DNA from: Candidatus Omnitrophota bacterium
Lineage (GTDB): Bacteria > Omnitrophota > Gorgyraeia > Gygaellales > Profunditerraquicolaceae
Assembly: GCA_030693145.1 (NCBI GenBank)
Contig: JAUYBI010000049.1
Coordinates: 7,305-71,304 of the forward strand
Reading direction: 5' to 3'
DNA: 64,000 bases
Below, in pieces: positions 11,483-38,847 of this stretch. The notes below the pieces were generated by a model. It did no database searches. It worked only from the letters and a program-made list of their open reading frames with translations, and was not told the origin of the DNA. Each line of letters begins with the position of its first letter. The stretch's first letter is position 1. The position numbers were made by a program, and so were the translations under genes.

Positions 11483-11501
11483 CCTAATCAGGAATAAATA
11501 A

Positions 11502-24059: not shown

Positions 24060-24443
24060 ATGAACAGGTGCTTTGCGGTTATTTTAGTATTATGTTTTCT
24101 TCCATTAATTTGTGGATGCGTGCCTCTGATTATCGGGGCAGCCGCAGGCGGTATGGGGGCATATGCGGTAAGCAAGGATACTGTGCAGGGGGATACGGAT
24201 AAGAATTATGAGGCGCTTTGGGGCTCAGCCTTGAGGGTTGCCAGTGCTTATGGCACAATCCAGCAGGAAAATGCCAGTACCGGTTATATTGAATTAGGGG
24301 CGCAATCCAGCAAAGTTTGGATAAAATTAGTCCGCTTGACTCAGGCGACAACTCGGGTTAGGGTGTCTGCGCGTAAATACCATTTCCCCAACATGGAGCT
24401 GGCGCAGGATATTTTTGTGAAGATTATTACCGGTGTGAGATAA
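24060..24443 (+). CDS. hypothetical lipoprotein
   Basis: Signal peptide with Cys-rich lipobox LICGC; no domain recognised. Confidence 0.4.
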   Translation: MNRCFAVILVLCFLPLICGCVPLIIGAAAGGMGAYAVSKDTVQGDTDKNYEALWGSALRVASAYGTIQQENASTGYIELGAQSSKVWIKLVRLTQATTRVRVSARKYHFPNMELAQDIFVKIITGVR

Positions 24444-24515
24444 GAGATTCCTCGTATTTTTATCTTTTCTTTTTGGGGAATCTGTGTACAATATAACAAA
24501 AGCTTAAAATAATAT

Positions 24516-24531
24516 TTAGCCGAGATAGCTC
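24516..24531 (+). repeat. duplicated 5' fragment of tRNA-Phe (TTAGCCGAGATAGCTC)
   Basis: 16-nt exact copy of the tRNA-Phe 5' end 56 bp upstream of the gene, followed by hairpin TCCGCCACAAAGCGTGGCGGA. Confidence 0.6.
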
Positions 24532-24573
24532 TCCGCCACAAAGCGTGGCGGATTCGCTAAGACATAAAAGTTA

Positions 24574-24645
24574 GCCGAGATAGCTCAGTGGTAGAGCGCG
24601 GCCCTGAAAAGGCCGGCGTGGGGGGTCCGATTCCCTCTCTCGGCA
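24574..24645 (+). tRNA. tRNA-Phe (GAA)
   Basis: Cloverleaf: acceptor GCCGAGA/TCTCGGC, D-arm GCTCAGTGGTAGAGC, anticodon stem CGGCC/GGCCG, loop CTGAAAA (anticodon GAA), T-arm; discriminator A. Confidence 0.85.
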
Positions 24646-24654
24646 TTTAATAAA

Positions 24655-24684
24655 AAGAGGGGTTTTCATAACCCCTCTTTTTTG
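24655..24684 (+). terminator. rho-independent terminator after tRNA-Phe
   Basis: AGAGGGGTT-TTCAT-AACCCCTCT followed by TTTTTTG. Confidence 0.7.
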
Positions 24685-24863
24685 TTTATGTTATGGCGTA
24701 ATTGTGTGGAAAACATACAGTTACGCCTTTTTGTTTTCCTATACTTAATTAGTTAATTTTGTATGAATTTGTATTTTCTTTATAGTTATTGGCTCATTAA
24801 CGGCTCAAACTTATTGAGTCATTGCGAGGAGCCGAAGGCGACGAAGCAATCTCAGGAGGTTTT

Positions 24864-25400
24864 ATGGCCTACGATCACATTAGAATATTAAATACTTTAT
24901 TTGCTAGCGGTGTATGGTATGAAATGACTCTGTCTGAAGTTAGAGTTTATGTCGCTATATGCAGCCACTGGAATTGGCAGAGATTAGAGGCATATCCTGC
25001 CATAAACACCCTTGCTGAAGAAACCCGTCTTTCCCGGCGCGGAGTTATCTATGCCCTAGAGCGGCTAAAAAAGAGGGGCCTCATCAGGGTTATTAAGAAG
25101 GGTCGCAAAAACTATTACCAAATCTTTGATTATCTTTTCAAAATGACTGCAACCTCAATAGGTGCAAAAAGTGCACTAATGGAATGGATAGGTGCAGATT
25201 TCGCTAAAACAGGTGAACAGGAGCGCGTAGATGGGTGCAGCCATATTCACCACCATATTAACTATACAATAAACAATACAACTATAACTAATTCCTTTAA
25301 CGCATCTAGCGAGAAAGCTGAACCTGATTATCTAAGGCAAATGCGTAGCGATCTTTTGGCAAGCGGGAGATATTTCTCGCCTAATCGCATAAAATTGTAG
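24864..25400 (+). CDS. winged-helix/HTH DNA-binding protein (replication-initiator N-terminal-like)
   Basis: ATG 24864 after GGAGG RBS; HTH segment NTLAEETRLSRRGVIYALERLKKRGLIRV. Confidence 0.45.
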   Translation: MAYDHIRILNTLFASGVWYEMTLSEVRVYVAICSHWNWQRLEAYPAINTLAEETRLSRRGVIYALERLKKRGLIRVIKKGRKNYYQIFDYLFKMTATSIGAKSALMEWIGADFAKTGEQERVDGCSHIHHHINYTINNTTITNSFNASSEKAEPDYLRQMRSDLLASGRYFSPNRIKL

Positions 25401-25473
25401 TATAATTAGCTTTACAGTTGAAAGAGTTATTTTTGAATCTAAAAATAGAAAAATTATTGTTGGAGGTGTTGAA

Positions 25474-26565
25474 ATGAAACAGCCTTATGTACCACAGCTG
25501 CTACCGTTAGAATCAGTGGATTGGGTTAGGTTTATTACCTTAATTGGCCAAGCAAATGCTGAGCTGGCGCGATATGACGGTATATTGCAAGGCATCATTA
25601 ATCCGAGAGTCCTTTTGTCTCCATTGACTACTAATGAAGCTGTTATTTCTTCTAAAATTGAAGGAACGCAGGCTTCTTTGGAAGAGGTTTTGAAATACGA
25701 AGCTTCGCCGGATGTAAAAACTGAGAAATATGATGATATTAGGGAAATTATTAATTACCGAGAAGCAATGCGTTTCGCGATTCAATGGATGAAAGAAAAA
25801 CCTATAACGTTAAACCTAATTAAACAAATGCACGGCATGCTTCTTGACAGCGTTAGAGGTAAAGATAGAAGTCGCGGGAGTTTTAGGACTAGCCAGAATT
25901 ATATTGGTAGGTTTGGCTCTACTATTGAACAAGCAAGCTATGTTCCGCCTGAACCAGCGATTCTTATGGAGCATCTTTCAAATTTTGAGAAATATATCCA
26001 TTATGATGAAAAAGATCGCTTGGTACAATTGGCTATTATTCATGCGCAATTTGAAATAATTCATCCTTTTTTAGATGGCAATGGCAGATTAGGTAGAATC
26101 TTAATACCGCTCTTTCTTTATGAAAAGAAAGTGCTTAATTCTCCGATGTTTTATATAAGTGAATATCTTGAGAGTAATCGCGAAGAATATTACGCAAAAC
26201 TGAGGGCAATATCTGAAGATAAAAAATGGGATGACTGGATTGAATTTTTCCTTCGGGCGATCGTCGCGCAAGCAAAGGCCAATAGCGTTAAAGCAAAAGC
26301 GATACTCGAGTTATATGAAATTAAAAAACACAAACTTTCAGAGCTGACGCACTCTCAATATGTCATAAAAGTTCTAGATACGATGTTTGCGCGCCCGCTT
26401 TTTTCAACAACAGATTTTATTAAAATTTCAAAGATACCTAAAGAAAGCGCTATTAGGCTTTTACGACTACTTAAGAAAGAAAAGATACTGACTACGCTTC
26501 GGGAGGGTAAAGGAAGAAGCCCGGAGATACTCATATTTAATAAGCTTTTCGATATTGTGCAATAA
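25474..26565 (+). CDS. Fic family protein (AMPylase/adenylyltransferase-type) with C-terminal wHTH
   Basis: Canonical Fic motif HPFLDGNGRLGRIL (HPFx[D/E]GNGR), 363 aa. Confidence 0.85.
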   Translation: MKQPYVPQLLPLESVDWVRFITLIGQANAELARYDGILQGIINPRVLLSPLTTNEAVISSKIEGTQASLEEVLKYEASPDVKTEKYDDIREIINYREAMRFAIQWMKEKPITLNLIKQMHGMLLDSVRGKDRSRGSFRTSQNYIGRFGSTIEQASYVPPEPAILMEHLSNFEKYIHYDEKDRLVQLAIIHAQFEIIHPFLDGNGRLGRILIPLFLYEKKVLNSPMFYISEYLESNREEYYAKLRAISEDKKWDDWIEFFLRAIVAQAKANSVKAKAILELYEIKKHKLSELTHSQYVIKVLDTMFARPLFSTTDFIKISKIPKESAIRLLRLLKKEKILTTLREGKGRSPEILIFNKLFDIVQ

Positions 26566-26665
26566 TCTTGTGTGTAATAAATGATGCGCTATATAGTTTG
26601 TGTGTCAAAAAATAGATAAAATGACACACAAGTCATTTTGTGTGTAATATATGACACGCAGTAAA
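26566..26665. promoter_or_regulatory. cluster of TGTGTGT(A/C)A / T(G/T)ACACACA repeats upstream of hsdM (operator candidate)
   Basis: TTGTGTGTAATAAATGA (26567), inverted pair TGTGTGTCA-N13-TGACACACA (26599-26631), TTGTGTGTAATATATGA (26638). Confidence 0.45.
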
Positions 26666-26742
26666 ATCTTGTAATAAGACTATTAAGCAATATTCGCTAT
26701 ATAAAGATTCGAGGATTGATACTTGAAGTAAAGGAGATTAGA

Positions 26743-28749
26743 GTGACGATTAATTTTAAAGAGAGTGCAAGTTTTATTTGGAGCATGGCCGAACTTTTGC
26801 GCGGAGACTATAAGCAGTCTGAATACGGCCGGGTGATATTACCGCTTACGGTTTTGCGACGTCTGGATTGTGTGCTTGAGCCAACTAAGGAAGCAGTGTT
26901 GTCATATTTGCCACAAACTAAAGGATTATCGCCAGAAGCCGCCGAGACGGTACTTAAGAAAAAAGCGAAGTTATCTTTTTACAGTAAGAGCAAGTTTGAT
27001 TTTCAGAAACTGGTTGCTGATCCCAATGACATAGCCGCTAACCTAAGAAATTATATCAACGGTTTTTCTAAGAACGCCCGCAGTATTCTGGAACATTTTA
27101 ATTTTAATGATCATATCGAGCGGCTTGATAAATCGAATCTTTTGTATATGATCGTCAAGCGTTTTGCCGAAGTTGATCTGCATCCAGACAAGATTCAAAA
27201 CATTGAGATGGGCTATATCTTTGAAGAGCTTATTCGCAAGTTCGCCGACCTTTCCAATGAAACAGCCGGAGAACACTTTACGCCACGCGAAGTTATCCGG
27301 CTTATGGTCAATATTCTCTTTCTGAACGATAAAGATGTTCTTACTAAAAAAGGTATCGTAAAAACTCTATACGATCCTGCATGTGGAACTGGAGGTATGC
27401 TCTCTGTAGCTGAAGAATATCTTCGTGAACTTAACCCCGGTGCAGATTTACGCGTATTCGGTCAGGAGTTAAATCCTGAGTCTTATGCTATTTGTAATTC
27501 TGACATGCTCATTAAGGGGCAGAATACGGAGCATATTAAGTTTGGCAATTCCTTCACGCAAGATGGACTTAAAGACGAAAAGTTTGACTATATGCTGAGC
27601 AATCCTCCCTTTGGTGTGGAGTGGAAAAAGATTGAGGAGGAAATTACCAAGGAATACGAGAAGTTGGGTTTTTCTGGGCGTTTTGGCGCTGGACTTCCGC
27701 GTATCAGTGACGGCTCTTTTCTATTCTTACAGCACATGATTTCTAAGATGCGACCGGAGAATGGTGGCGCGCGGCTAGGGATAGTTTTCAACGGTTCACC
27801 TCTTTTTTCGGGTGGGGCCGTAAGTGGTGAAAGTGAAATCCGTAAATGGATTATTGAAAATGATATGCTCGAAGCGATTATTGCGATGCCGGATCAACTT
27901 TTCTATAACACCGGCATTTCGACTTACATTTGGATTGTTACGAATCGTAAAGAGAAGGAACGCAAAGACAAGATTCAGTTTATCAACGCGGTTGAGTCTT
28001 TTAGTAAAATGCCCCGTAGCCTTGGGAATAAACGAAATGAAATTAGTGATGAGCATATTACTGAAATTACCAAGATTTACGGAGAATTTAAGGAGTGTGA
28101 ATACTGCAAAATATTTCCTAACGAATATTTTGGCTATACGCGCGTAACAGTGGAAAGGTCGCTTCGGCTTAATTTTCAGGTTTTAAAGGAACGGATTGAG
28201 CGGCTTGATGAGCAGCCAGGACTAATTAATCTGGCTAAATCCAAGAAGAAAGGCAAAGAAGGATTAAGGGAAATCGAGGAAGGCGAAAAACTGAAAAAAG
28301 ATATCAAGGTGATGTTATTAACTTTCGATTCTAAGCTTTATAGGAACCGTGAGAAGTTTATTGAGGTTATCGAGCAAGTTGCAGAAAAATCAAGGCTTGA
28401 GATTAAAGCGCCTGTGATGAAGGCGATCCTTGAAGCTCTATCCGAGCGAGATGGAACGGCAGATATCTGTATGGATAAAGACGGGAATCCGGAGCCGGAT
28501 ACTGATCTGCGGGATTATGAAAACATTCCACTTATGGATAATATTGAGGATTATTTCAAGCGCGAAGTTTTGCCTCATGTGTCTGACGCGTGGATGGACA
28601 GGAGCAAAGATAAAGTCGGCTATGAGATAAATTTTACCAAGGAGTTTTATAAATACAAACCGCTAAGATCACTGAAAGAGATTCGCAATGATATCCTCGC
28701 ATTGGAAAAAGAAACCGAAGGGCTAATGGGGGAGGTTTTGAAAGACTAA
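26743..28749 (+). CDS. hsdM: type I restriction-modification system methyltransferase subunit HsdM
   Basis: HsdM N-terminal domain (FIWSMAELLRGDYKQSEYGRVILPLTVLRRLD), motif I DPACGTGGML, motif IV NPPF; GTG start 26743 after AAGGAG RBS. Confidence 0.9.
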   Translation: MTINFKESASFIWSMAELLRGDYKQSEYGRVILPLTVLRRLDCVLEPTKEAVLSYLPQTKGLSPEAAETVLKKKAKLSFYSKSKFDFQKLVADPNDIAANLRNYINGFSKNARSILEHFNFNDHIERLDKSNLLYMIVKRFAEVDLHPDKIQNIEMGYIFEELIRKFADLSNETAGEHFTPREVIRLMVNILFLNDKDVLTKKGIVKTLYDPACGTGGMLSVAEEYLRELNPGADLRVFGQELNPESYAICNSDMLIKGQNTEHIKFGNSFTQDGLKDEKFDYMLSNPPFGVEWKKIEEEITKEYEKLGFSGRFGAGLPRISDGSFLFLQHMISKMRPENGGARLGIVFNGSPLFSGGAVSGESEIRKWIIENDMLEAIIAMPDQLFYNTGISTYIWIVTNRKEKERKDKIQFINAVESFSKMPRSLGNKRNEISDEHITEITKIYGEFKECEYCKIFPNEYFGYTRVTVERSLRLNFQVLKERIERLDEQPGLINLAKSKKKGKEGLREIEEGEKLKKDIKVMLLTFDSKLYRNREKFIEVIEQVAEKSRLEIKAPVMKAILEALSERDGTADICMDKDGNPEPDTDLRDYENIPLMDNIEDYFKREVLPHVSDAWMDRSKDKVGYEINFTKEFYKYKPLRSLKEIRNDILALEKETEGLMGEVLKD

Positions 28750-28750
28750 A

Positions 28751-29215
28751 ATGCTCATTCTTGTAAAAAGTTATCTGTGTCTATTTAATAAAAATTGGTT
28801 TTTGGATGAATTGGTAAACGTTGATTTTAAGAGAGAATTACTTTCGAATTCTGGATTGCGAGAAGCTAATGAACAACATAAGAATGAAGCTAAAGATCGT
28901 CTGCGTCGCGATACAATAGAACGAAGAAAACTGCTTTATCAGAAAATGATACTTTCATTAGGCTGGATTTTGTTGGCAGCAGTCTCGGGATTGTTAATAT
29001 CGGTGTTCGGCTTCCATAGACAAATTTTTTATGAGAATAAATATGTCGGATTGTTATCTATATTTTGTTTTTCTTGGGCAACGCTTGCTCGCTTAGGATG
29101 GCAAGGGCAAACGTGTGCAGGAGATACTATTTTTGAGAAACTTGATGAAAATATTTTCTGGGTTTTGTATTTTTTTGGCACCCTATTTGGTGCTTTTTCA
29201 ATAATTGCGTCTTGA
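28751..29215 (+). CDS. small 3-TM membrane protein embedded between hsdM and hsdS
   Basis: 154 aa; charged N-terminal ~65 aa then three hydrophobic helices; starts 2 nt after hsdM stop. Confidence 0.5.
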   Translation: MLILVKSYLCLFNKNWFLDELVNVDFKRELLSNSGLREANEQHKNEAKDRLRRDTIERRKLLYQKMILSLGWILLAAVSGLLISVFGFHRQIFYENKYVGLLSIFCFSWATLARLGWQGQTCAGDTIFEKLDENIFWVLYFFGTLFGAFSIIAS

Positions 29216-29219
29216 TTAT

Positions 29220-30530
29220 ATGAAATATTATCCGGCATATAAAGATTCTAAAATTGAGTGGTTTCCTTCGATTCCTAAGCATTGGCAGCTTATTAAGCTA
29301 GGAAGAATAGGCCGTTTTTCTGCCAGCGGTATTGATAAGAAAAGCGATGCAAGCGAACTTCCCGTTAGGATGGTAAATTATACAAATGTTTATGGTAATT
29401 CTAGTTTAGAGATTAAGTTTTCGGAAAATTTAATGGAAACGACAACAACGTTAGAAAAAGTTAGGGAGCATAGTTTAAAAAAAGGAGACATGGTGTTTAC
29501 TCCAAGTTCTGAAACAGCCGAAGATATTGGTTTATCGGCTGTGGTTACAGCAGAGCTTCGTAATACTGTTTATAGCTATCATTTGATTCGTCTAAGGACT
29601 GGTGAGCGTTATAATCTGAATTTAGGGTTTAAGAAATATTTTTGCAATGTTCATGAAGTTTTGAGTCAATTTAGCAAAGCGTGTAAGGGAACGACGCGGC
29701 AAATCTTAGGTCGAGATGATTTTAAAGATATATTAATTCTGCTCCCACCAGTAAGCGAACAGAAAATAATTGCTGAGTATCTTAATCGCAAGGCCGCGCA
29801 GGTTGATGACTTGATTGCCAAAAAAGAGCGGATGATTGATCTTATCAAGGAGGAGCGGGCGGCGATCACCAATCGAGCAGTAACTAAAGGGCTTGATCCC
29901 AATGTCGAGATGAAAGATTCTGGCATTGAGTGGTTAGGCAAAATGCCGAAGCATTGGCAGATGAAAAGATTGAAATATTTAGTGTCCTTAGTTAATCAGC
30001 CGATTGAAGAGGTTAATGGAGCGGAACTGCGTATTGACTTAGAAAATCTTGAAAGCTGGACTGGAAAAACAATTGAGCTTGAGAGCCAAGATCAAAACAA
30101 CGAAGGAATGAAAAGTTTTGCTCCAGGGGACGTGTTGTTCAATAAATTGCGGCCATATCTTGCCAAAGTATATCGAGCAAAAAATTGTGGTGTTTGCGGC
30201 GGGGAACTCTTGGTTCTGCGTCCGACCACATTGATCGATCCGGATTTTCTTTTCTGTAGAGTCCTTTCAAGTGCTTTTATAAATGTGGTTGATGGTTCGA
30301 CCTACGGATCTAAAATGCCGAGGGCAAGTTGGGATTTTATTGGGAATCTCATTGTTCCATTTCCGAGCAAACCCGAACAAATTAAGATCGCAGAATACCT
30401 GCATCAGACCTTACAGAGAATGGATATAATTTTACAGAAATTGGGTTCGGAAATTGAATATTTAAGAGAATACCGCACCGCTTTGATTTCAGAAGTGGTA
30501 ACGGGAAAGATTGATGTGAGGGGGTTTTAG
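29220..30530 (+). CDS. hsdS: type I restriction-modification system specificity subunit HsdS
   Basis: Two target-recognition domains separated by conserved central/distal repeats (LPPVSEQKIIAEYLNRK ... PFPSKPEQIKIAEYLHQ). Confidence 0.85.
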   Translation: MKYYPAYKDSKIEWFPSIPKHWQLIKLGRIGRFSASGIDKKSDASELPVRMVNYTNVYGNSSLEIKFSENLMETTTTLEKVREHSLKKGDMVFTPSSETAEDIGLSAVVTAELRNTVYSYHLIRLRTGERYNLNLGFKKYFCNVHEVLSQFSKACKGTTRQILGRDDFKDILILLPPVSEQKIIAEYLNRKAAQVDDLIAKKERMIDLIKEERAAITNRAVTKGLDPNVEMKDSGIEWLGKMPKHWQMKRLKYLVSLVNQPIEEVNGAELRIDLENLESWTGKTIELESQDQNNEGMKSFAPGDVLFNKLRPYLAKVYRAKNCGVCGGELLVLRPTTLIDPDFLFCRVLSSAFINVVDGSTYGSKMPRASWDFIGNLIVPFPSKPEQIKIAEYLHQTLQRMDIILQKLGSEIEYLREYRTALISEVVTGKIDVRGF

Positions 30531-30532
30531 TC

Positions 30533-31507
30533 ATGAAAGATATAGTTAAGTCATTAAGAAATTCAGTATTTACAACATTTTTTTACATCTTGCTTGATTA
30601 TTATAAGAAACAACGTTCATGGTTTGATTATCTAATCATTTTTTTGATATTGAGTACAACTCTATTATTAGTTTCTTTAACTTGGAACGTAATTAAACAA
30701 TGGTATCTAGACTGGAGAAGAAAACACTTTCCTCGCGTGGGAATACTTAATGGGTCTATTAAATCTCGAACTGTCGAGCATCCATGCAGAAGACAGTGGA
30801 GTGAGATGACGCCGAGCATGTGGTTTGAACAATTAAAAAGGGATTTCAAGAAGCCCTTACTTAGCGAATTGATTCTAATACCAACGTCAGAAATTGACAA
30901 TTCTTGGAGTATAGTTATTAATCCGTTCGGAGAAAACTATCCCGAAGAAAATCCGCGTTTACTAAAAACTTTTAAAGAGATCTGTGAGTATATTAATAAA
31001 GGAGGAATATTTGTAGTAACTGGTAGCGCATTCTTTTATAATCAAAATACCTTTGCTACACCCCAGTCCGAGAGAGTAATAACGCATGTTATTGAAGGTG
31101 TGCAGTATCTTGAATATTCTGTTCTCACTCAAGAGTTTGGAGTTAAATATACAGGTAATATACATGATATTCAGAATAAAAAGGTGCTTTTTGAAGAACC
31201 GGTTGAGATAAATGTTACTCAAACGAGCGACATGGTTAAGATGTGGGGAGATTTATTGCAAGGGATTAACCATTTGAAGAGATTTAGGGCAGCTACTAGC
31301 GAAACTATCGATTATCTTCCTGTTATTATACAGGAAGGTGAGGATCAGTGGAATAAAGGCAAAAAAATATTTCCCATAGCTTTAATTCGATATGGCAAGG
31401 GGGCTTTGATACATGCAGGGTTGCACATACATTCATATAGTTGTGATGAATTTTTAGTTTTGAAGCGTTTAATCTTGAAATTGGCGAAGAATAAGTTTAC
31501 ATTCTGA
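30533..31507 (+). CDS. hypothetical protein with N-terminal TM helix, embedded between hsdS and hsdR
   Basis: 324 aa; TM LIIFLILSTTLLLVSLTW then ~270-aa soluble domain with no motif I can assign. Confidence 0.5.
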   Translation: MKDIVKSLRNSVFTTFFYILLDYYKKQRSWFDYLIIFLILSTTLLLVSLTWNVIKQWYLDWRRKHFPRVGILNGSIKSRTVEHPCRRQWSEMTPSMWFEQLKRDFKKPLLSELILIPTSEIDNSWSIVINPFGENYPEENPRLLKTFKEICEYINKGGIFVVTGSAFFYNQNTFATPQSERVITHVIEGVQYLEYSVLTQEFGVKYTGNIHDIQNKKVLFEEPVEINVTQTSDMVKMWGDLLQGINHLKRFRAATSETIDYLPVIIQEGEDQWNKGKKIFPIALIRYGKGALIHAGLHIHSYSCDEFLVLKRLILKLAKNKFTF

Positions 31508-31530
31508 TAATATAAATTAGGAGTTGCAAG

Positions 31531-34500
31531 GTGGGTATAACTAACGAAAAAGCTTTTGAAGACGCTATCGAACAAAGTTTGATGGATCCTGGCGGATATG
31601 TAAAAGGCGATCCGAATAATTTTAATCGGGATCTGGCGATTGATCAAATGGTTTTGTTTCAGTTTATCAAGGATACCCAGAAGAATGTTTGGGATAGCTT
31701 GGTGGCTATCCATGGCGCAGAGGTCGAGAAAAAGTTTTTATATCGCCTTAATCAAGAGCTGGATGCGCGCGGGATGCTTGATTGTTTGCGCCACGGATTC
31801 ACTGATTATGGCAAGAAATTCACACTCGCCTATTTTAAGCCAGTCAGCAAATTAAACCCGGAAACCCAAAAGTTATTCGATAGAAATATCCTCACCGTTA
31901 CCCGGCAGGTTCATTACAGCATCAAGGATGAAAGCTCGATTGATATGCTTTTGTCTGTCAACGGCCTTCCTGTGGCTACTATTGAATTAAAAAATCCATT
32001 TACCGGTCAGGATGTGGATGACGCCAAACGGCAATATAAATATGACCGCGACGAACGTGAGCTTTTATTTCAGTTTAAGAAGCGTGCCTTTGTCCATTTT
32101 GCTGTAGATACAGACGTCATTTACATGACCACGCGCCTTCAGGGGAGCAAGACAAAGTATCTGCCTTTCAATAAGGGCTATAACAAAGGTGCCGGGAATC
32201 CCCCGAATTCAAGCGGCCATAAGACATCGTATTTATGGGAAGCGGTCTTGGTAAAAGACAGCTGGATGGATATCTTAGGAAGATTTTTGCTTTTAGAAGT
32301 TGAGGAAAAGACGTTTGATGGTAGAAAGTTCAAGATTGAGACAATGATATTTCCACGTTATCACCAACTTGATAGCGTCCGGAAGCTTTCTTCCGATGCT
32401 CTCGCAAATGGAGCAGGAAAGAATTATTTAATTCAACATAGCGCTGGGAGTGGCAAGAGCAATTCTATCGCATGGCTTGCATATCATTTGGCTAGTCTTC
32501 ATGACAAAAACGATAAGAGGTTATTTGATTCGGTGATTGTGATCACCGATCGTATCGTTCTTGATAAACAATTACAAGATACGATTTATCAATTTGAACA
32601 TAAGTCTGGAGTGGTTGAAAAAATTGACAAAGATTCCGCCCAGCTGGCTCAGGCACTCACCAGTGGAACAAATATTATTATCACTACACTTCAAAAGTTT
32701 CCTTTTGTTTTGGATAAGGTTGGGGCACTGCCTAAGCGAAATTACGCGGTTATCGTAGATGAGGCGCATAGTTCGCAGGGTGGCGAATCCGCTAAAAAGA
32801 TGAAAGACGTTCTTTCGGCGGTTGATAAAATCGAGATCGTATCCGAGAAAATCGATGAGGATGACGATATAGAAGATGAAATCCGTGAATCTATGCTTAA
32901 ACGTGGCCCCCGGACGAATTTAAGTTTCTTTGGTTTTACGGCAACCCCAAAAGCAAAAACGCTGGAGTTTTTCGGGCAAAAGGGCATAGATGGAAAACCA
33001 CAACCATTTCATCTTTATTCTATGAGGCAGGCGATCGAAGAAAGATTTATTTTTGATGTTCTTGAAAACTACACCAGCTATCAAACTTTTTTCCAGTTAT
33101 CCAAGAAGATTGAAGACGATCCGAATATGAATAAGAAAAAGGCCGCTTGTGCGATCGCGCGTTTTTTAACACTACACCCCTATAACTTGGCACAGAAAAC
33201 CGAAGTCATGATTGAGCACTTCCGGCAGATCACTTTGAAAAAGATTGGCGGTAAGGCCAAGGCGATGGTCGTGACCGCTTCTCGCGAACACGTGGTGCGA
33301 TATAAACATGAGTTTGATCGGTATTTGAAAGAGAAAGGCTATAAAGATATCAAAGCTCTTGTGGCCTTTTCGGGTACAGTGCTTTTGGATGGTATTCCTC
33401 CGGAATATACCGAACCGGGAATGAATGGTTTTGGCGAAAAAGAACTGCCCCAAAAGTTTGCTACATCCGAATATCAGATTTTGCTTGTTGCGGAAAAGTA
33501 TCAGACCGGCTACGACGAGCCACTTTTACATACCATGTATGTGGACAAGCGGCTTGACGGCGTCAAGGCTGTGCAGACCATGAGCCGGTTAAATAGAACG
33601 TGTCCGGGGAAGGAAGATACTTTCATTTTGGACTTCGTTAATAAGCGCGAAGATATATTAGCGGCGTTTCAGCCGTATTACGAGCAGACACAGTTAAGCG
33701 ATGTTACGGATCCAAATAAGCTTTATGATCTCAAGACCAAACTGGATTCGTTTAAGGTGGTTTATCAATCAGATATCGATGCATTCTGTGCCGTATTTTT
33801 CAGGAATAAAGAATTACAGACGAAGCGCGAGCATGCTCAATTGAATTCAATAGTGGATGTGGCGGTTGAGCGGTTCAAGGCAATTGAAAAAGATGAGCAT
33901 AAAGAAGATTTTGCCAATACGCTGGGTGTTTTTGTTCGCTTGTACGCGTTTTTGGCGCAGATTATGCCATTTCAAGATATTGAACTTGAGAAATTCTATG
34001 CTTATTCCCGACTATTGTTGAAAAAACTTCCGGGGCCTGATGGTGGAGAAAGATATCATTTTGGTGATGAAGTCGCTCTTGAGTATTACCGCTTGCAAAA
34101 AATAGTTGATGGTAAGATTCAATTGCAAAAGGATTCAGGTGCGGCCATTGATCCTATTTCAGAAGCTGGGACGAAGAAGGATAAAGAAGAATACGCTTAC
34201 TTGTCAGAGATAATAAAGTTTTTAAATGACCGGTTTGGAACTGATTTTACCGAAGCTGACAAGCTATTTTTTGATCAGATAGAAGAAGAGATGGTTATGG
34301 ATGAGAAGTTGGGTGTTCAGGCTAAGGCTAACACAATTGATAATTTTAAATATGGATTTGATGACGTTTTTATTGCAAAACTCGTTGAGCGAATGGACCA
34401 GAATCAGGATATTTTTAACAAAATTATGGATGATAAAGTTTTTGCGGCAGTGGTGAAGGATTATTTATTAAAGAAGGTTTATGATCGTTTAAATAAAGAT

Positions 34501-35016
34501 AATAGTGGTTCGGCGGAAGGCATTTTATTTTTTAAGGATGTGATTACGAATGGAGATATTGATGATAATCGTAAATACATAAATTTTCTGCCGGTGTATT
34601 CCTTGCAGGCAGTAGCGACGTCTTTTAAAGAACAATCAACTCCTGAAGTTATTGGTTGGAAACCGATTAGCGGTCGGAAGATCAGCAAAGAAATGTTTAT
34701 TGCACAGGTAATAGGTAAATCTATGGAGCCGACTATTTCGGACGGGAGCTGGTGTTTATTTCGGTTTGAACGCGGAGGATCTCGTAATGGATTAGTGGTG
34801 CTTGTTGAGTCGCGTTTGGTTGCTGATCCTGAAACCAATCAAAAATTTACAATTAAACGTTACAAGAGTGAAAAGGAAGATCTTGGTAACGGTCAGTGGA
34901 GGCACAAAAAAATTATTTTATCCCCTGACAATAAAGATTTTAAGGATATTGTTCTTGAAAATATATCTGGGGAAGATTTTCGAGTTGTGGCAGAGTTTAT
35001 AGAAGCTTTTAAATAA
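31531..35016 (+). CDS. hsdR: type I restriction enzyme endonuclease subunit HsdR with C-terminal S24 (LexA-like) peptidase domain
   Basis: N-terminal PD-(D/E)XK nuclease (VATIELKNP), SF2 helicase motifs (QHSAGSGKS Walker A, VIVDEAHSS DEAH box, YQTGYDEP), then C-terminal ~130 aa with GKSMEPTISDGSWCLF ... FTIKRYK matching the S24 Ser/Lys dyad context (GDSMEPTI.DGD ... VKRL in LexA). Confidence 0.8.
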   Translation: MGITNEKAFEDAIEQSLMDPGGYVKGDPNNFNRDLAIDQMVLFQFIKDTQKNVWDSLVAIHGAEVEKKFLYRLNQELDARGMLDCLRHGFTDYGKKFTLAYFKPVSKLNPETQKLFDRNILTVTRQVHYSIKDESSIDMLLSVNGLPVATIELKNPFTGQDVDDAKRQYKYDRDERELLFQFKKRAFVHFAVDTDVIYMTTRLQGSKTKYLPFNKGYNKGAGNPPNSSGHKTSYLWEAVLVKDSWMDILGRFLLLEVEEKTFDGRKFKIETMIFPRYHQLDSVRKLSSDALANGAGKNYLIQHSAGSGKSNSIAWLAYHLASLHDKNDKRLFDSVIVITDRIVLDKQLQDTIYQFEHKSGVVEKIDKDSAQLAQALTSGTNIIITTLQKFPFVLDKVGALPKRNYAVIVDEAHSSQGGESAKKMKDVLSAVDKIEIVSEKIDEDDDIEDEIRESMLKRGPRTNLSFFGFTATPKAKTLEFFGQKGIDGKPQPFHLYSMRQAIEERFIFDVLENYTSYQTFFQLSKKIEDDPNMNKKKAACAIARFLTLHPYNLAQKTEVMIEHFRQITLKKIGGKAKAMVVTASREHVVRYKHEFDRYLKEKGYKDIKALVAFSGTVLLDGIPPEYTEPGMNGFGEKELPQKFATSEYQILLVAEKYQTGYDEPLLHTMYVDKRLDGVKAVQTMSRLNRTCPGKEDTFILDFVNKREDILAAFQPYYEQTQLSDVTDPNKLYDLKTKLDSFKVVYQSDIDAFCAVFFRNKELQTKREHAQLNSIVDVAVERFKAIEKDEHKEDFANTLGVFVRLYAFLAQIMPFQDIELEKFYAYSRLLLKKLPGPDGGERYHFGDEVALEYYRLQKIVDGKIQLQKDSGAAIDPISEAGTKKDKEEYAYLSEIIKFLNDRFGTDFTEADKLFFDQIEEEMVMDEKLGVQAKANTIDNFKYGFDDVFIAKLVERMDQNQDIFNKIMDDKVFAAVVKDYLLKKVYDRLNKDNSGSAEGILFFKDVITNGDIDDNRKYINFLPVYSLQAVATSFKEQSTPEVIGWKPISGRKISKEMFIAQVIGKSMEPTISDGSWCLFRFERGGSRNGLVVLVESRLVADPETNQKFTIKRYKSEKEDLGNGQWRHKKIILSPDNKDFKDIVLENISGEDFRVVAEFIEAFK

Positions 35017-35115
35017 TAATGAATAATCGTTTCTAATTTTTTTAAAAAACAGTGAAGTAAAGGGAAAACAATTTCTAGTTTCTACAGGTGTGCGAAGGAT
35101 TAAACAGGAGGAGAA

Positions 35116-36273
35116 ATGGCAGATATAAAAAGAGAGTATGAAGGAGATCATGAAGTAGAAGAAGAATATTTGGTTCTTGAATATGATATTACAGCTTCGC
35201 CAAATGATTTTAATATAAAAACCATATTTGATTTTATAGAATCTGGAGCTGTTATCATACCGGAATTTCAAAGGAATTATGTATGGGATATTAGGCGAGG
35301 ATCAAAATTTATCGAATCCCTTATTATGAACTTGCCTGTACCGCAAATTTTTCTCTATGAATCAGGGAGAAATAAATTCAAAGTTATTGATGGACAGCAA
35401 AGATTAATGACAATTTATTATTTTATGAAAAAGAGGTTCCCTTGGAAAGAAAAAAGAATGGAGCTGCGGCGTATCTTTGATAAAGCAGGGAAAATTCCTC
35501 CTGAGGTGTTAGCTGATGATAAATTCTTTTCAGATTTTAACCTCAAATTAGAAAGTAGCGTTGAGGGAGTGACTAGTAGATTAAATGGTTTGAACTATGA
35601 TACGCTCAAGGATTACAAAACCTCTTTTGACCTACGTACTATTAGGAATATTATTGTTAAACAAACTAAGCCAGAAGATGATGATTCTTCTATGTATGAA
35701 ATATTTACAAGATTAAACTCTGGTGGGATTAATTTAACTCCTCAAGAAATTCGTGCGTGTATGTTTCATTCTGATTTCTATGATACATTACATAAAGTTA
35801 ATTTAGATGAGCGTTGGAGAAAAATAATTGGCTCGAAAGATCCAGATCTTCATTTAAAGGATGTAGAGATCCTATTAAGGAGTTATGCTGCGTTAATAAA
35901 AGGAGAAAACTATGCTCCTCCCATGACAAAGTTTCTTAATACATTTTCAAAAGAACGTGAAAAGGAAACTCGTAAAAGCTTAGATTATTACGAAAAATTA
36001 TTTTATTCATTTTTGGATTATTGTTCAGAACTTCGAGAAAAATCTTTCTTTGGTAAAACTGGAAAGTTTAATATTTCTCTTTTTGAAGCTGTTTTCTATG
36101 CAATTTGCGAAAAATCTTATAAAAAGCATTCTTTAGTTGAGGGGAAGATCGAGGCAATAAAATTAAATAGATTAAAAAGAGACAAACAGTTTACGGGTGC
36201 TTCTCAAATGCGTTTATCAAGTAAACAAAATGTCGCTATTCGCCTTGATCGCGCAAGGAAGATTATATTATAA
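35116..36273 (+). CDS. DUF262 (ParB/Srx-like nuclease domain) protein
   Basis: PEFQRNYVW and KVIDGQQRLMTIYYF (DGQQR) motifs diagnostic of DUF262. Confidence 0.8.
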   Translation: MADIKREYEGDHEVEEEYLVLEYDITASPNDFNIKTIFDFIESGAVIIPEFQRNYVWDIRRGSKFIESLIMNLPVPQIFLYESGRNKFKVIDGQQRLMTIYYFMKKRFPWKEKRMELRRIFDKAGKIPPEVLADDKFFSDFNLKLESSVEGVTSRLNGLNYDTLKDYKTSFDLRTIRNIIVKQTKPEDDDSSMYEIFTRLNSGGINLTPQEIRACMFHSDFYDTLHKVNLDERWRKIIGSKDPDLHLKDVEILLRSYAALIKGENYAPPMTKFLNTFSKEREKETRKSLDYYEKLFYSFLDYCSELREKSFFGKTGKFNISLFEAVFYAICEKSYKKHSLVEGKIEAIKLNRLKRDKQFTGASQMRLSSKQNVAIRLDRARKIIL

Positions 36274-36282
36274 AATTTTCAT

Positions 36283-36798
36283 ATGGACAATTCCCCAATT
36301 GATAAGTTATATTTTGAAACTAAGTCGATATTGGATTTTCTTGAAAGAAATAATGAATTATCATTTAAAAGTGATATTGATAATATGTTTAAAAGATATT
36401 TATTATTGGTTTCAGGAGGTTATTTTGAAGAATGCATAACGAATATTTTACTGAATCTTGTATCTAAAAACGTAGATAACAAACTTATCATTGAATTTTT
36501 AAAGAATAAAGGTATTAAAAGACAATACCATACTTATTTTGATTGGGAATCTATTAATGCAAATCAATTCTTTAGTTTGTTTGGGGAAGAATTCAAGGAA
36601 AAGATGAGTCAAGAAGTTAATAATAAAGAAACATTGAAGGTTTCGATAAAAGATTTTATACAAATAGGGCATGCTAGGAATTTACTTGCTCATAAAAATG
36701 CTACTTTAGTTAATCTAGATAAGACTTCGGAAGAAACATATGCTCAATACAAGAGTGCAGAGGAGTTTATTAGTTTTCTTCAAGAGCAACTTTTATAA
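36283..36798 (+). CDS. HEPN-domain protein (Abi/RiboL-PSP-like)
   Basis: 171 aa alpha-helical; C-terminal GHARNLLAHKN = R-[N]-x3-H HEPN catalytic motif. Confidence 0.55.
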   Translation: MDNSPIDKLYFETKSILDFLERNNELSFKSDIDNMFKRYLLLVSGGYFEECITNILLNLVSKNVDNKLIIEFLKNKGIKRQYHTYFDWESINANQFFSLFGEEFKEKMSQEVNNKETLKVSIKDFIQIGHARNLLAHKNATLVNLDKTSEETYAQYKSAEEFISFLQEQLL

Positions 36799-36823
36799 AT
36801 TTTAAATTTAACAAAAATAATGC

Positions 36824-36852
36824 TTGACAGATGTAATTACATATGGTAACAT
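36824..36852 (+). promoter_or_regulatory. promoter TTGACA-17-TAACAT overlapping palindromic operator TGTAATTACA
   Basis: TTGACA 36824-36829, TAACAT 36847-36852, perfect 10-bp palindrome 36832-36841 in the spacer; upstream of XRE gene. Confidence 0.55.
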
Positions 36853-36878
36853 GGGACTAAGCTAAGATAAGGGGAAAG

Positions 36879-37073
36879 ATGACGACGATTGATAGGCAAA
36901 AATTCGCGAGAGCAATTAAGAGGTATAGAGAAGAGAAGGATCTTACTCAGAAGGAATTAGCGGGTAAGTTGATGACTACAACTACAACAGTTGCGCGGTG
37001 GGAATTGGGGATGAGCGTGCCGAAACAAGACAGGGTGATTCAGGAGATAAAGGCATTAGGTATTAACTGGTAA
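36879..37073 (+). CDS. XRE-family HTH transcriptional regulator
   Basis: 64 aa; LTQKELAGKLMTTTTTVARWELG HTH_3 pattern. Confidence 0.75.
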   Translation: MTTIDRQKFARAIKRYREEKDLTQKELAGKLMTTTTTVARWELGMSVPKQDRVIQEIKALGINW

Positions 37074-37099
37074 ATTTTTTTGTCCTTTGAGATTACAAG

Positions 37100-37109
37100 T
37101 GTAATTACA
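37100..37109. promoter_or_regulatory. second copy of TGTAATTACA palindromic operator
   Basis: Identical 10-bp palindrome between XRE gene and xis-like gene. Confidence 0.5.
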
Positions 37110-37135
37110 TACGATATAAGGAAAGGAGTGGCGAC

Positions 37136-37315
37136 ATGGATAGATTATTAACGCCGGAGGAAGTTTGTCAGAGGTATAGCATTAAAAAGAATACGTTTTA
37201 TCAGTGGACTTCAAAAAATTTAATACCATACCTCAAAAGAGGCGGCTTACGTTTTAAGGCGGATGAGCTTGAGAAATGGGAGAGCGGAGAGGTAAACAAT
37301 GTTAAATTAATATGA
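37136..37315 (+). CDS. excisionase-family DNA-binding protein (Xis/AlpA-like)
   Basis: 59 aa (below ORF-track cutoff): MDRLLTPEEVCQRYSIKKNTFYQWTSKNLIPYLKRGGLRFKADELEKWESG; RBS AAGGAAAGGAG; stop overlaps integrase ATG (ATGA). Confidence 0.65.
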   Translation: MDRLLTPEEVCQRYSIKKNTFYQWTSKNLIPYLKRGGLRFKADELEKWESGEVNNVKLI

Positions 37316-38505
37316 CCTATCGTTTAAGGCAATTTAACCTTAAGAGCGTTGTTAAGCGGGGTAAATTTTTTGAGATCCGCTATACTAACCCTCGTACCCA
37401 AAAAAGGGAATATTATAAGTTAGGCATAACACATGATGAAGTAAAAAGGAACCTGCCTGAATTTAATAGAATGTACGCCGGCCTTAAAAGGCAGGTTTTT
37501 TCTTATAGGATTACTGTCAGTCAAGGTGTGCAATCGTGGCTTGAGCAAAAAAGAACTGAATTAAGTAATAAGAAAACCGTGGTTCGGTATGAAGAAATTA
37601 TGAATAATTTCGCGGAATTTCTTAAAGATAAATTCCCGGCTTTAGGATATATGGATGAATTAGCGCAAAAACACTTTGAGGAGTTTAAAGAATACCGCAA
37701 AAATATTAAAGGGAAAAAGGAGAGGACGGTCAATTTTGAATTAGATATGTTAAGTAACTTATTCAAACGTTTGATGGAAAAAGATTATCTTAATTATAAT
37801 CCTTTATCGAAAGTTAAGAGATTGCAGGAACCATATAAAGAAGAGCGTTGGTTTACTGAAGAGGAGATTCGGAAAATTTTTGAAATAGCCAAAAGTGAGA
37901 AAACAAAGATAAATTGGTATGTTATATTCGCTACCTATTATTATACAGGTATGCGTAAAAGGGAATTGATGTCTCTCAGGAAGAAAGATATTGATTTTGA
38001 CAAAGGAATTATACTTATTCGGCACAAAGAGGGGTTTAAGCCGAAAACAGATAGGCCGAGGGCGATTCCTATTCATCCGGAGTTGGTGTCGATTTTGAGA
38101 TTGCTTCGGCCCTTCGGGCCTCGCAATGACACTGGGGACAGTGTTTGCAATGACGAGGGGAAAGTCGTGTCTTGTAATAACCAGGGAGACGGAGATTTTG
38201 TATTTGTTAATTCAAGGGGTAAGCCGTTTTCTAACGACGCGATAAGGCAGAAGTTAAAGAAGTTGTGCCGCAAGGCAGAGATAAAGCCCGGTAAGTTACA
38301 TAGCTTTAGGCATACTTGGACCGCTCATTCTATTATGAAAGGCTGTCCTTCAGATGTGGTTCAGGCGATCGGCGGCTGGAAAGAAAAAGATATGATTGAA
38401 AGATACAAGCACCTTGCGCCGGATTATATGGCTGATATTTATAAGAAAACAATTTTTTTAGGCAGCCAGGCTGAAGATAAAGGCTCTTTAAAGGCTCAAG
38501 ATTAA
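37312..38505 (+). CDS. tyrosine-type site-specific recombinase/integrase
   Basis: N-terminal SAM-like domain, C-terminal catalytic R...HSFRHTWTAH...GGW...RYKHL (R-H-R-Y) motifs. Confidence 0.85.
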   Translation: MTYRLRQFNLKSVVKRGKFFEIRYTNPRTQKREYYKLGITHDEVKRNLPEFNRMYAGLKRQVFSYRITVSQGVQSWLEQKRTELSNKKTVVRYEEIMNNFAEFLKDKFPALGYMDELAQKHFEEFKEYRKNIKGKKERTVNFELDMLSNLFKRLMEKDYLNYNPLSKVKRLQEPYKEERWFTEEEIRKIFEIAKSEKTKINWYVIFATYYYTGMRKRELMSLRKKDIDFDKGIILIRHKEGFKPKTDRPRAIPIHPELVSILRLLRPFGPRNDTGDSVCNDEGKVVSCNNQGDGDFVFVNSRGKPFSNDAIRQKLKKLCRKAEIKPGKLHSFRHTWTAHSIMKGCPSDVVQAIGGWKEKDMIERYKHLAPDYMADIYKKTIFLGSQAEDKGSLKAQD

Positions 38506-38586
38506 AGTTATGGGAGATGTAAATGTTTGATATAGTTAATATTTATGAGAAAAGAAATTCCTTATCCCTCTTTCGGCATTTTAAAT

Positions 38587-38627
38587 AAGAAATGGGGTCA
38601 GATCTAATAGATCTGACCCCATTTCTT
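38587..38627. terminator. bidirectional hairpin between integrase (+) and cspA2 (-)
   Basis: AAGAAATGGGGTCAGATCT-AAT-AGATCTGACCCCATTTCTT, 19-bp perfect inverted repeat with flanking A/T runs. Confidence 0.65.
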
Positions 38628-38646
38628 ATTGACCTTATTTAAAAGC

Positions 38647-38847
38647 TTATATTTTTTTTACGTTAGTTGCCTGGTCGCCTTTGGGGCCTTGAGTAACCTC
38701 AAATTCAACTTCATCGCCTTCTGCTAAAGATTTATATCCTTCTCCGGTGATAGCGCTGAAGTGAATGAAAACATCTTTGCCATCTTCAGAAGTAACAAAT
38801 CCGTAACCCTTTTGGTTGCTAAACCACTTTACTTTACCCTTTGCCAT
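38647..38847 (-). CDS. cold-shock protein (CspA family), second paralog
   Basis: 66 aa, [14 protein letters not shown] / VFIHF motifs. Confidence 0.95.

Follow-up and report, generated by a model that had tools for sequence, protein, structure and literature searches.

The stretch of DNA analyzed here, 64,000 nt of Candidatus Omnitrophota contig JAUYBI010000049.1 (the window; all coordinates refer to it as a whole), contains, between an intact tRNA-Phe(GAA) gene and a gene for a cold-shock protein (csp), an array of genes encoding a Fic protein, a type I restriction-modification (RM) system, a DUF262 protein next to a HEPN protein, and an XRE-Xis-integrase module (Table 1). The 3' end of tRNA-Phe recurs beyond the integrase gene, and a 16-nt sequence that includes the 5' end of the same tRNA gene is duplicated upstream, on the two sides of a short hairpin. 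We compared the locus with related contigs, which are denoted by L-numbers (L001 etc.). The best overall explanation, to which we assign a probability of about 0.85, is that the integrase made a cargo-carrying island of 13.9 kb at the tRNA-Phe gene, namely the segment 24651-38588, which the comparison identifies as inserted DNA, and that the 16-nt duplication belongs to a separate leader module unrelated to the island.

Table 1. Features of the tRNA-Phe locus in the window
Feature	Position	Strand	Evidence or remark
Putative -10 box TACAAT of the tRNA-Phe promoter, preceded by TGTG	24487-24492	+	putative function
Promoter-proximal copy of the tRNA 5' end ('X')	24516-24531	+	3 leader nt and tRNA nt 1-13
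Invariant module core, hairpin TCCGCCAC-AAAGC-GTGGCGGA, then TTCGCTA	24532-24559	+
A-rich spacer	24560-24573	+	last 3 nt belong to the second 16-mer copy (24571-24586)
tRNA-Phe(GAA), intact	24574-24645	+	ARAGORN; Rfam tRNA, 63.4 bits
attL core	24632-24650	+	repeat search, comparison with relatives
Two terminator-like hairpins, left end of the island	24652-24682, 24695-24727	+
HTH_36 backbone protein, 192 aa	24822-25400	+	Pfam HTH_36, 1.8e-7
Fic_N and Fic protein (SoFic-type)	25474-26565	+	PADLOC SoFic, 1.2e-113, residues 3-362; Pfam
HsdM, type I RM methylase	26716-28749	+	Pfam N6_Mtase, 1.3e-64; HsdM_N
154-aa ORF with hydrophobic, apparently membrane-spanning segments	28751-29215	+	between hsdM and hsdS
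HsdS specificity subunit	29205-30530	+	Pfam Methylase_S
324-aa ORF with hydrophobic N-terminal segment	30533-31507	+	between hsdS and hsdR
HsdR, 1161 aa, with C-terminal LexA-like S24 peptidase domain	31531-35016	+	Pfam
DUF262/GmrSD_N protein	35116-36273	+	PADLOC NsnA, 6.8e-60; PD-T4-2_A, 1.7e-43
HEPN RiboL-PSP protein	36283-36798	+	PADLOC PD-T4-2_B, 1.8e-6
Two 22-nt operator-like repeats around XRE	36827-36848, 37095-37116		contain palindrome TGTAATTACA
XRE, 64 aa	36879-37073	+	Pfam search
Xis-like HTH_17 protein, 59 aa	37136-37315	+	Pfam HTH_17, 5.7e-12; PHROG excisionase families
Tyrosine integrase, 397 aa, intact	37312-38505	+	Pfam Phage_integrase, 7.1e-31; PHROG integrase, 5.8e-62
attR, partial copy of the tRNA-Phe 3' end (TCCCTCTTTCGGCATTTTAAATAA)	38565-38588	+	C-to-T change seen in no relative
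Host bidirectional terminator common to tRNA-Phe and csp	38584-38630	.	perfect 23-nt inverted repeat
csp (cold-shock protein), host flank	38647-38847	-	66 aa
Decayed leader module before tRNA-Thr, GCCGA and gtaagatattatt	39069-39086	+	hairpin deleted
tRNA-Thr(CGU)	39087-39159		ARAGORN

The left attachment (att) core is a 19-mer, TCCCTCTCTCGGCATTTAA, that comprises the last base of the T-loop (nt 60), the 3' strands of the T-stem and the acceptor stem, the discriminator and 5 nt of the trailer. It is repeated, with 2 mismatches, at 38565-38583, and these are the only two matches of this type in the 64 kb, against 0.03 expected from shuffled sequences. The two cores are separated by 13,933 bp; attR starts 60 bp after the stop codon of the integrase gene and also differs from attL by small indels. 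The attR core is TCCCTCTTTCGGCA in the window and TCCCTCTCTCGGCA in all relatives, i.e. the window has a private C-to-T change. The G+C content falls to 0.30-0.35 within the 34.5-38 kb stretch, compared to 0.42-0.46 in the flanks. The preliminary description of this DNA had listed the gene content (Fic, type I RM with inserts, DUF262 and HEPN, XRE-Xis-Int), recognized the imperfect recurrence of the tRNA-Phe 3' end past the integrase and taken the repeats for the boundaries of an island; the gene content proved correct in profile searches, the recurrence is as described, and the boundaries are borne out by empty sites in relatives and by a family of integrases at the same tRNA. A pair of AT-rich repeats near the end of the integrase gene (D5/D2, 38426-38460 and 38530-38564) was considered as a set of integrase arm sites and set aside; a third copy lies outside the island. 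The T-arm of tRNA-Phe (24622-24640) has the T-loop TCCGATT instead of the usual TTCGAAT-type sequence, in the window as in all relatives.

The empty site that the preliminary description had proposed to look for, tRNA-Phe/csp/tRNA-Thr, is present in L002, L005 and L008, where tRNA-Phe, the terminator hairpin and csp follow each other within ~55 bp, with tRNA-Thr beyond. In L002, tRNA-Phe is followed by TTTAAATAAAAATGGGGTCAGATCTAATAGATCTGACCCCATTTTTATTGACC; in the window, attR is followed by TTTTAAATAAGAAATGGGGTCAGATCTAATAGATCTGACCCCATTTCTTATTGACC, which begins GGGGTCAGATCTAATAGATCTGACCCC... and is equal to the L002 sequence right after tRNA-Phe, so that the interval between the att cores is an insertion. 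The bidirectional terminator, too, matches the sequence directly after tRNA-Phe at the L002 empty site; in this alignment it is the right flank of attB, which consists of the tRNA-Phe 3' end together with the terminator shared with csp. The locus is bordered by the host genes SNF-DUF3568 to the left and csp(-)-tRNA-Thr-MFS-Rnf to the right, and the csp protein is identical in many related Candidatus Omnitrophota contigs (exact-protein look-up). In L006, the closest relative of the window, there is no island between tRNA-Phe and csp; the space (10420-11560) is occupied by a gene for a 186-aa ORF6N-domain protein bracketed by ~65-bp direct repeats (aataatgggaccgtttctatttttcgagctttagcattaaaaaatagaaacggtcccatttatt), and a further 1.2-kb insert lies between csp and tRNA-Thr.

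The backbone of the island has a left and a right part. On the left, the two terminator-like hairpins are kept in L010 and L016 as well as in remnants that lack an integrase (L001, L004, L006, L007), and the adjacent HTH_36 protein, which matches an O-like replication initiation PHROG (5.9e-11), is predicted to be replication-initiator-like or DnaD-like. The right part starts at window position ~36810 in every relative and encodes XRE, Xis and the integrase. The latter contains SAM-like N-terminal domains (Pfam) and, by alignment, the catalytic HxxR (HSFRH) and the tyrosine in ERYKHLA; in NCBIfam, it yields only weak Xer-like matches below the cut-off. The operator-like repeats that flank the XRE gene occur only as these 2 copies in the 64 kb, against 0.05 expected, and the same pair, 267-268 bp apart, is found in L010, L011 and L013. 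They are well placed as operators for XRE and for the xis-int operon, which suggests a repressor-controlled excision switch. The central portion, from ~25373 to ~36809, is swappable cargo.

A scan of one genome per species identified integrases 78-93% identical to that of the window in six records of metagenome-assembled genomes (MAGs), five of them Omnitrophota/Omnitrophica and one 'bacterium'; more distant integrases, 37-39% identical, are located at the same site, including the L009 copy (39%) beside the same csp. Where the contig permits, the tRNA-Phe 3' core lies 40-60 bp after the integrase gene (L009-L016, L174-L182), and L010 and L016 retain the intact tRNA-Phe ~9.9 kb upstream of it. 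The backbone proteins of the window island and the L010 island are 88% (HTH_36), 100% (XRE), 92% (Xis) and 93% (Int) identical, compared to 76% for SNF, 54% for DUF3568, 77% for MFS, 65% for RnfC and 91% for csp among the host proteins; at the DNA level, the backbone (24572-25372 and 36809-38584) is 89-90.6% identical and the host flanks 68-70%. The element, being ~20 points more similar than the surrounding chromosome, thus moved horizontally. L010 shares with the window the backbone and not the cargo, which in L010 consists of an NgoPII-type RM system with Vsr, a MazG-like protein, a TIR-NLR protein (PADLOC, 8e-173) and two unknown proteins. In L016, the cargo includes a C5-methylase with a Bsp6I-like RM system and other nuclease-like genes, and L009 encodes domains of unknown function.

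An exact look-up of the 64-aa XRE protein retrieved 17 contigs. Two of these are of the L010 type, three have the same XRE-Xis-Int module and a perfect attR followed by a response-regulator/histidine-kinase flank instead of csp, and at least three more carry other cargo sets; in all, the backbone is found with at least five other cargo sets in other genomes. L176, the DNA of which is 100% identical to the window over 11.6 kb, is by this identity the same population in another sample (SRR13727537). Several relatives are composite or decayed: L007 contains an internal attR-like site followed by a second left end of an island, L016 has a second degenerate att site, and in L182 the integrase is split. 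Thus, as judged from these comparisons, the family moves between divergent Omnitrophota genomes and accumulates at tRNA-Phe with tandem remnants; integration at the tRNA 3' end, conservation of the backbone, variability of the cargo and transfer between hosts are all apparent from the alignments.

Under this scenario, recombination by the tyrosine integrase took place between attP, a copy of the tRNA-Phe 3' end carried by the element, and attB in the tRNA gene, leaving the intact tRNA at attL and the partial copy at attR, beside the tRNA/csp terminator. XRE and Xis would regulate excision, and the excised circle may replicate with the help of the HTH_36 protein, as suggested by its match to replication initiators. 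The attP of the circular form would read ...CCTTATCCCTCT[T/C]TCGGCATTTAATAAAAAGAGGGG (junction also written ...GAAATTCCTTATCCCTCT[T/C]TCGGCATTTAATAAAAAGAGGGGTTTTC), and the repaired attB junction would be ...GGTCCGATTCCCTCTCTCGGCATTT(T)AAATAAGAAATGGGGTCAG.

Several observations weigh against this interpretation or parts of it. The attR core is mismatched in the window and perfect in every relative, and the C-to-T change, should it fall within the strand-exchange overlap, may impair excision; the similarity of the HTH_36 protein to replication initiators is confined to their DNA-binding part; Pfam and PHROGs revealed no relaxase, packaging or capsid gene among the island ORFs; and neither the exact integrase protein nor P0003 has a record in the contig index, although the DNA of L176 is identical over 11.6 kb. 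The island had been called probably mobilisable in the preliminary description, which is reasonable for the family and less so for this particular copy, given the private change in its attR core. The island could, indeed, be a fixed, non-excisable remnant that is now chromosomal defence DNA, a tentative alternative that we consider possible rather than probable. It would account for the C-to-T change and the small indels that distinguish attR from attL, and it has precedents among the decayed relatives (the split integrase of L182; the left-end hairpin without an integrase in L001, L006 and L007). However, Int, Xis and XRE all have intact ORFs, the two operators are intact as well, and a single mismatch within a core of 17 nt is often tolerated by tyrosine integrases; the 100% identical copy in the second sample, for its part, demonstrates only a recent population.

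The second alternative, that the region is a degraded prophage or a phage satellite similar to phage-inducible chromosomal islands (PICIs) rather than a cargo island, is unlikely. The integrase, the excisionase-like gene, XRE with its operators and the replication-initiator-like gene are found together in PICIs as well. Nevertheless, no ORF of the window island matches a terminase, capsid, portal, tail, primase or packaging-redirection protein (Pfam, PHROGs), and none was detected in L010 either (8 cargo or backbone ORFs and a small XRE-Xis ORF searched against Pfam, 3 against PHROGs). In IMG/VR and INPHARED, no protein exceeds 33% identity to the integrase, and the island DNA has no match in phage or plasmid records, which leaves an origin from a known phage or plasmid without support. 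Among the island ORFs, no primase or helicase was recognized, only the HTH_36 protein, and no Pfam family of relaxases or type IV secretion or coupling proteins, as would be expected of an integrative conjugative or mobilizable element (ICE/IME). By gene content, the island is neither a PICI, nor an ICE, nor a prophage.

The cargo of the window island seems to comprise three anti-phage systems, namely SoFic, type I RM and the DUF262-HEPN pair. The Fic protein scores 175.9 bits against the NCBIfam SoFic equivalog, well under the cut-off of 550 bits. The type I RM set is complete, with HsdM, HsdS and HsdR encoded together. The two ORFs inserted between its genes have no match in Pfam, PADLOC, PHROGs or NCBIfam, and both are conserved in L176; in other loci, the gaps between type I RM genes are the site of anticodon nucleases and abortive-infection genes. 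The HsdR protein combines HSDR_N, ResIII, SWI2_SNF2 and T1R_D3 domains (Pfam; PADLOC REase_I, 1.1e-35) with an S24 peptidase domain (~34630-35013) in which both the serine (GKSMEPT) and the lysine (TIKRY) motifs are intact; the fusion is called as a single gene in L176 as well. A search with the last 202 aa of HsdR retrieved 148 relatives, those listed being 49-85% identical and one 99%, mostly from Omnitrophota or uncultured MAGs. In these proteins, the S24 module occurs alone (~115-180 aa) or together with the HsdR C-terminal domain DUF3387, HsdS, Mrr, a TnsA-like endonuclease or PF09848. It looks like a promiscuous self-cleaving module that has been added to restriction and other defence nucleases, and is possibly a built-in switch for restriction alleviation or activation. 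The adjacent DUF262 and HEPN genes resemble a PD-T4-2 pair, going by the names of the PADLOC models that they match. For defence research, the candidates of interest are the two hydrophobic proteins encoded in the type I RM operon and the self-cleaving S24 module on HsdR.

The 16-mer TTAGCCGAGATAGCTC occurs exactly twice in the window, at 24516 and 24571, i.e. 55 bp apart, against 0.02 expected. The string tgtgtacaatata upstream of tRNA-Phe is conserved in all relatives. In those without the duplication, the promoter (TGTGTACAAT) is followed by a leader of ~27 nt and the tRNA, which starts at the position of X; X is thus the original 5' end, still in place. In the window and in L006, its closest relative, 55 bp are added, which consist of the hairpin, TTCGCTA, the A-rich spacer, and a second TTA with tRNA nt 1-13. 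The duplication can be interpreted as target sequence that was doubled when a 39-nt hairpin module entered the tRNA gene after nt 13. In L001 and L004, the same hairpin and TTCGCTA precede tRNA-Thr, within a 16-nt duplication of the start of that gene (ATTGCCGATGTAGCTC). In the window, the first 5 nt of tRNA-Thr (GCCGA) are repeated 18 nt upstream, in a decayed copy that was recognized by comparison with the intact module of L001, L004 and L059 and with the module-free L002. A covariance model of the module (R1) scores 60.8 bits (E 3e-15) at the core next to tRNA-Phe, which is its sole copy in the window; no further diverged copies were found there, and elsewhere the model yielded only partial hairpin matches. 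The module and the island are independent: L010 has the island and not the insert, and L006 has the insert and no integrase, so the duplication is unrelated to the island.

Metagenomes were scanned with the pattern TCCGCCA-N(3-14)-TGGCGGATTCGCTA, the flanks being left unspecified, and 35 loci from more than 20 samples were retrieved. The same layout upstream of tRNA genes is found at 30 of the 35; one of the other loci is inside a flavin mononucleotide (FMN) riboswitch, one is intergenic and three are apparently chance matches, so that 30 of the 32 genuine matches are at tRNA genes. The tRNAs that carry the module are Phe, Thr, Arg(UCG, ACG), Lys(CUU), Met, Ala(CGC), Val(GAC) and Gly(GCC). Eight of the 30 copies are exact duplicates, leaving 22 distinct sequences besides that of the window; L083 has no downstream tRNA on the contig, and the tRNAs of L070 and L075 were not called by ARAGORN. 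In every tRNA case, the hairpin is preceded by a copy of nt 1-13 of that same tRNA, ending in TAGCTC (TAGCCC in L081, TAGCAC in L091). Other hairpin sequences occur in the same layout (L092 and L063, 'type B', with TAGCTCA before and TTTCGCA after the hairpin; L093 at tRNA-Lys(UUU), found without the pattern), and there are tandem and multi-hairpin versions (L016, L088, L093). Among 63 compared tRNAs, a set biased by the way it was collected, nt 1-13 are repeated upstream of 21 and downstream of none.

In the Met, Lys, Ala, Val, Gly and some of the Arg copies, a stretch that follows TTC-GCTA (X') is complementary to the tRNA from nt 7 to nt 1-4. In the predicted RNA, the 5' strand of the acceptor stem pairs with its complement in a helix of 8-11 bp, which an internal loop of invariant sequence (UC/UUC) separates from the hairpin; the z-scores of such folds range from -2.4 to -7.0. 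Covariation with tRNA identity is seen in the outer helix: in an alignment of 23 sequences, it amounts to 0.124 compared to 0.056 +/- 0.011 for shuffled alignments, none of 500 shuffles reaches this value, and slid controls lie at 0.03-0.06. In copies whose upstream repeat no longer equals the real tRNA, X' still fits the real tRNA as well or better.

Searches for known counterparts were negative. The leader (24440-24573) has no match in Rfam even at E up to 10, only the tRNA itself being recognized, and no description was found in the literature on tRNA leader hairpins, 5' duplications, MITEs (miniature inverted-repeat transposable elements) at tRNA genes or minihelix mimics. A short hairpin pattern was too unspecific for IMG/VR, where all 40 matches are unrelated coding or phage sequence. 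The FMN riboswitch locus (L069, 1315-1487) contains the same GC hairpin and a second hairpin, TTCGCTA...TGGCGAA, inside the aptamer (RF00050, 78.3 bits); the intergenic copy (L061, 10588-10700) is nested in a perfect 14-bp inverted repeat upstream of an enolase gene. In L081 (100-800), an ORF of ~230 aa with a LAGLIDADG-like motif (LAGLMLYWAEG) lies between a tRNA-Lys copy (nt ~33) and the intact tRNA-Lys, and in L075, from ~300 to the end of the contig at 1050, tRNA-Phe is interrupted after nt 21.

According to the preliminary description, which gave the spacing of the two 16-nt copies as 56 bp, the duplication is the scar of an earlier recombination at this locus. The duplication itself is real, with exactly two copies, and the scar interpretation was not upheld: the same insert precedes many island-free tRNA genes and duplicates the 5' end of each. 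In its explicit form, this interpretation posits a site-specific element that was integrated in the 5' part of the tRNA and later deleted to 39 bp. Larger insertions that leave a 5' tRNA fragment do exist, in the case of the L081 ORF and the L075 tRNA-Phe. Yet the same 28-nt core follows nt 1-13 of the local tRNA at no fewer than eight tRNA species in more than 20 independent samples; deletions that arose independently would not all have left one and the same ~40-nt remnant; acceptor stems as different as GCCGAGA and GCCGATG could not both be restored by a fixed attP; and, as noted above, the insert is independent of the island. The recurrence of the same ~40-nt unit at many different tRNAs makes the scar of a larger element unlikely.

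We see an even chance that the module represents an undescribed class of tRNA-gene-specific units of ~40 nt in Omnitrophota-like genomes, each consisting of the invariant GC hairpin, TTCGCTA and a stretch complementary to nt 1-11 of its tRNA, and placed after nt 13 of 'TAGCTC' tRNA genes together with a duplicated 5' end, which give the leader a minihelix that mimics the acceptor stem. Such a class could be a new small mobile element with an internal segment templated by its target or matched to it, or a new cis-acting leader RNA; the two possibilities are about equally likely and not mutually exclusive.

The first of these, a small MITE-like or repetitive extragenic palindromic (REP)-like DNA element that inserts after TAGCTC (tRNA nt 8-13) and duplicates at least 16 bp, is a serious possibility that nonetheless falls short of even. 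Close relatives differ in whether they have the module, at tRNA-Phe as well as at tRNA-Thr, 16-nt direct repeats flank it both times, and its core is near-invariant across different tRNA genes; there are tandem and nested copies (L016, L063, L088, L092), hairpins inside the FMN riboswitch and in an intergenic region, and a decayed copy at the window's own tRNA-Thr. However, no associated transposase was found among the compared loci and the module lacks terminal inverted repeats; a fixed element alone does not account for an X' complementary to each target tRNA; and loss by recombination between direct repeats would produce the same presence-absence polymorphism. A module of the IS200/IS605 or REP-associated tyrosine transposase (REP/RAYT) type was rejected, such insertion making no target duplication and 16-nt repeats being present at tRNA-Phe and tRNA-Thr; no Y1 transposase was seen near the module in a search confined to the compared loci.

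The second, a cis-acting RNA of the pre-tRNA in which the minihelix mimics the acceptor stem and affects folding, RNase P processing or stability, we likewise hold only tentatively. The two-stem hairpin is predicted to be significantly stable, its outer stem shows covariation with tRNA identity and makes use of G-U pairs, and different hairpins are found in the same architecture (L092 and L063 type B; L093). Furthermore, with a good X' (L091), the module and the cloverleaf are predicted to fold independently, and with a weak X' (the window), the minimum-energy fold pairs the upstream decoy with the 3' acceptor strand of the tRNA. Against a leader RNA, the Phe and Thr copies, that of the window among them, have a weak X' or none, many relatives lack the module, and the invariance of the core is partly imposed by the search pattern. 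The two possibilities could be combined: an insertion that duplicates the tRNA 5' end would create a decoy, and a complementary stretch that sequesters the decoy would then be favoured. Self-primed (snap-back) copying was rejected as the origin of X'; such copying should yield a perfect hairpin, whereas the internal loop TC/TTC does not pair and is the same in all copies.

Elsewhere in the window (50347-51059), an initiator-type tRNA-Met, missed by ARAGORN, has a group I intron in its anticodon loop (Rfam Intron_gpI, 69.2 bits at 50784-50989). The 5' exon, CGCGGGGTGGAGCAG..., starts at 50347 and the 3' exon ends ...GGGCCCCCGCAACCA; within the intron lies a 145-aa ORF (50384-50821) that probably encodes a homing endonuclease. 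The arrangement resembles the introns of cyanobacterial tRNA-fMet. A stem of this intron (50931-50954) is a hairpin similar to that of the leader module, CCCGCCA-TAGGATT-TTGGCGGG.

Among the families compared (Rfam, REP/RAYT, IS200/IS605 and MITE), none appears to include the leader module, which is the likeliest new part of the locus. Like REP sequences, bacterial interspersed mosaic elements (BIMEs) and MITEs, it is a short, non-coding, GC-rich, near-identical hairpin with many copies, some in tandem, and is polymorphic among relatives; unlike these, it is fixed after tRNA nt 13 (30 of 32), has a target duplication of at least 16 nt and a segment complementary to the targeted tRNA, and lacks terminal inverted repeats. 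Casposons and Cas1-type integration beside tRNA genes produce 14-15 bp target duplications of tRNA sequence. The module shares with them a long target duplication of tRNA sequence and a site-specific position at the tRNA, which is an analogy only: it is located at the 5' and not the 3' part of the tRNA, is only ~40 nt long, contains a fixed hairpin and has no casposon-type terminal repeats, and no Cas1 gene was seen with it. Minihelices made of the tRNA acceptor and T-arm are model substrates for RNase P and aminoacyl-tRNA synthetases. In L066, L089 and L091, the outer helix is the 5' strand of the acceptor stem with its complement, extended by UAGC/GCUA to 11 bp and capped by the hairpin; in contrast to minihelices, the module is placed in the 5' leader of the same tRNA and has neither a CCA end nor a T-loop. 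If the leader module holds up, it would represent a new mechanism of insertion or a new layer of pre-tRNA control.

The island, on the other hand, can be compared with several known types of integrative elements. With PICIs and other phage satellites, it shares int, xis, a repressor with operators, a replication-initiator-like gene and a size in the 10-14 kb range, and differs in that no packaging, capsid-remodelling or primase genes were found (Pfam, PHROGs). The integration classes of tRNA-associated islands were reportedly laid out by Williams in 2002. From the classical tRNA islands, which likewise have an att core extending from the T-loop to the trailer, an integrase beside attR and empty sites in relatives, the window island does not differ in principle; it is a new family in an uncultivated phylum. 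Tycheposons are tRNA-targeting, cargo-carrying integrative elements of Prochlorococcus, and some of them are PICI-like (Hackl et al., bioRxiv 10.1101/2020.12.28.424599). The common features are a tyrosine recombinase specific for one tRNA, integration into the 3' part that leaves partial tRNA copies, Xis and regulators, variable cargo, and tandem integrations with degenerate remnants that build an additive island beside the tRNA (here in L007, L016 and L182). The differences are the Omnitrophota host, the lack of a recognizable primase/helicase replication module apart from the HTH_36 protein, and the annotated cargo (in the window, L010 and L016), which is mostly restriction and anti-phage rather than nutrient acquisition. 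The island thus seems to be best described as a tRNA-targeting, integrase-borne cargo island for which tycheposons are the closest described model. It provides a comparatively documented case of the exchange of anti-phage systems in the uncultivated phylum Omnitrophota, in which a single tRNA-Phe-specific integrase/XRE/Xis chassis with at least five to six differing cargo sets builds a hot spot beside the tRNA.

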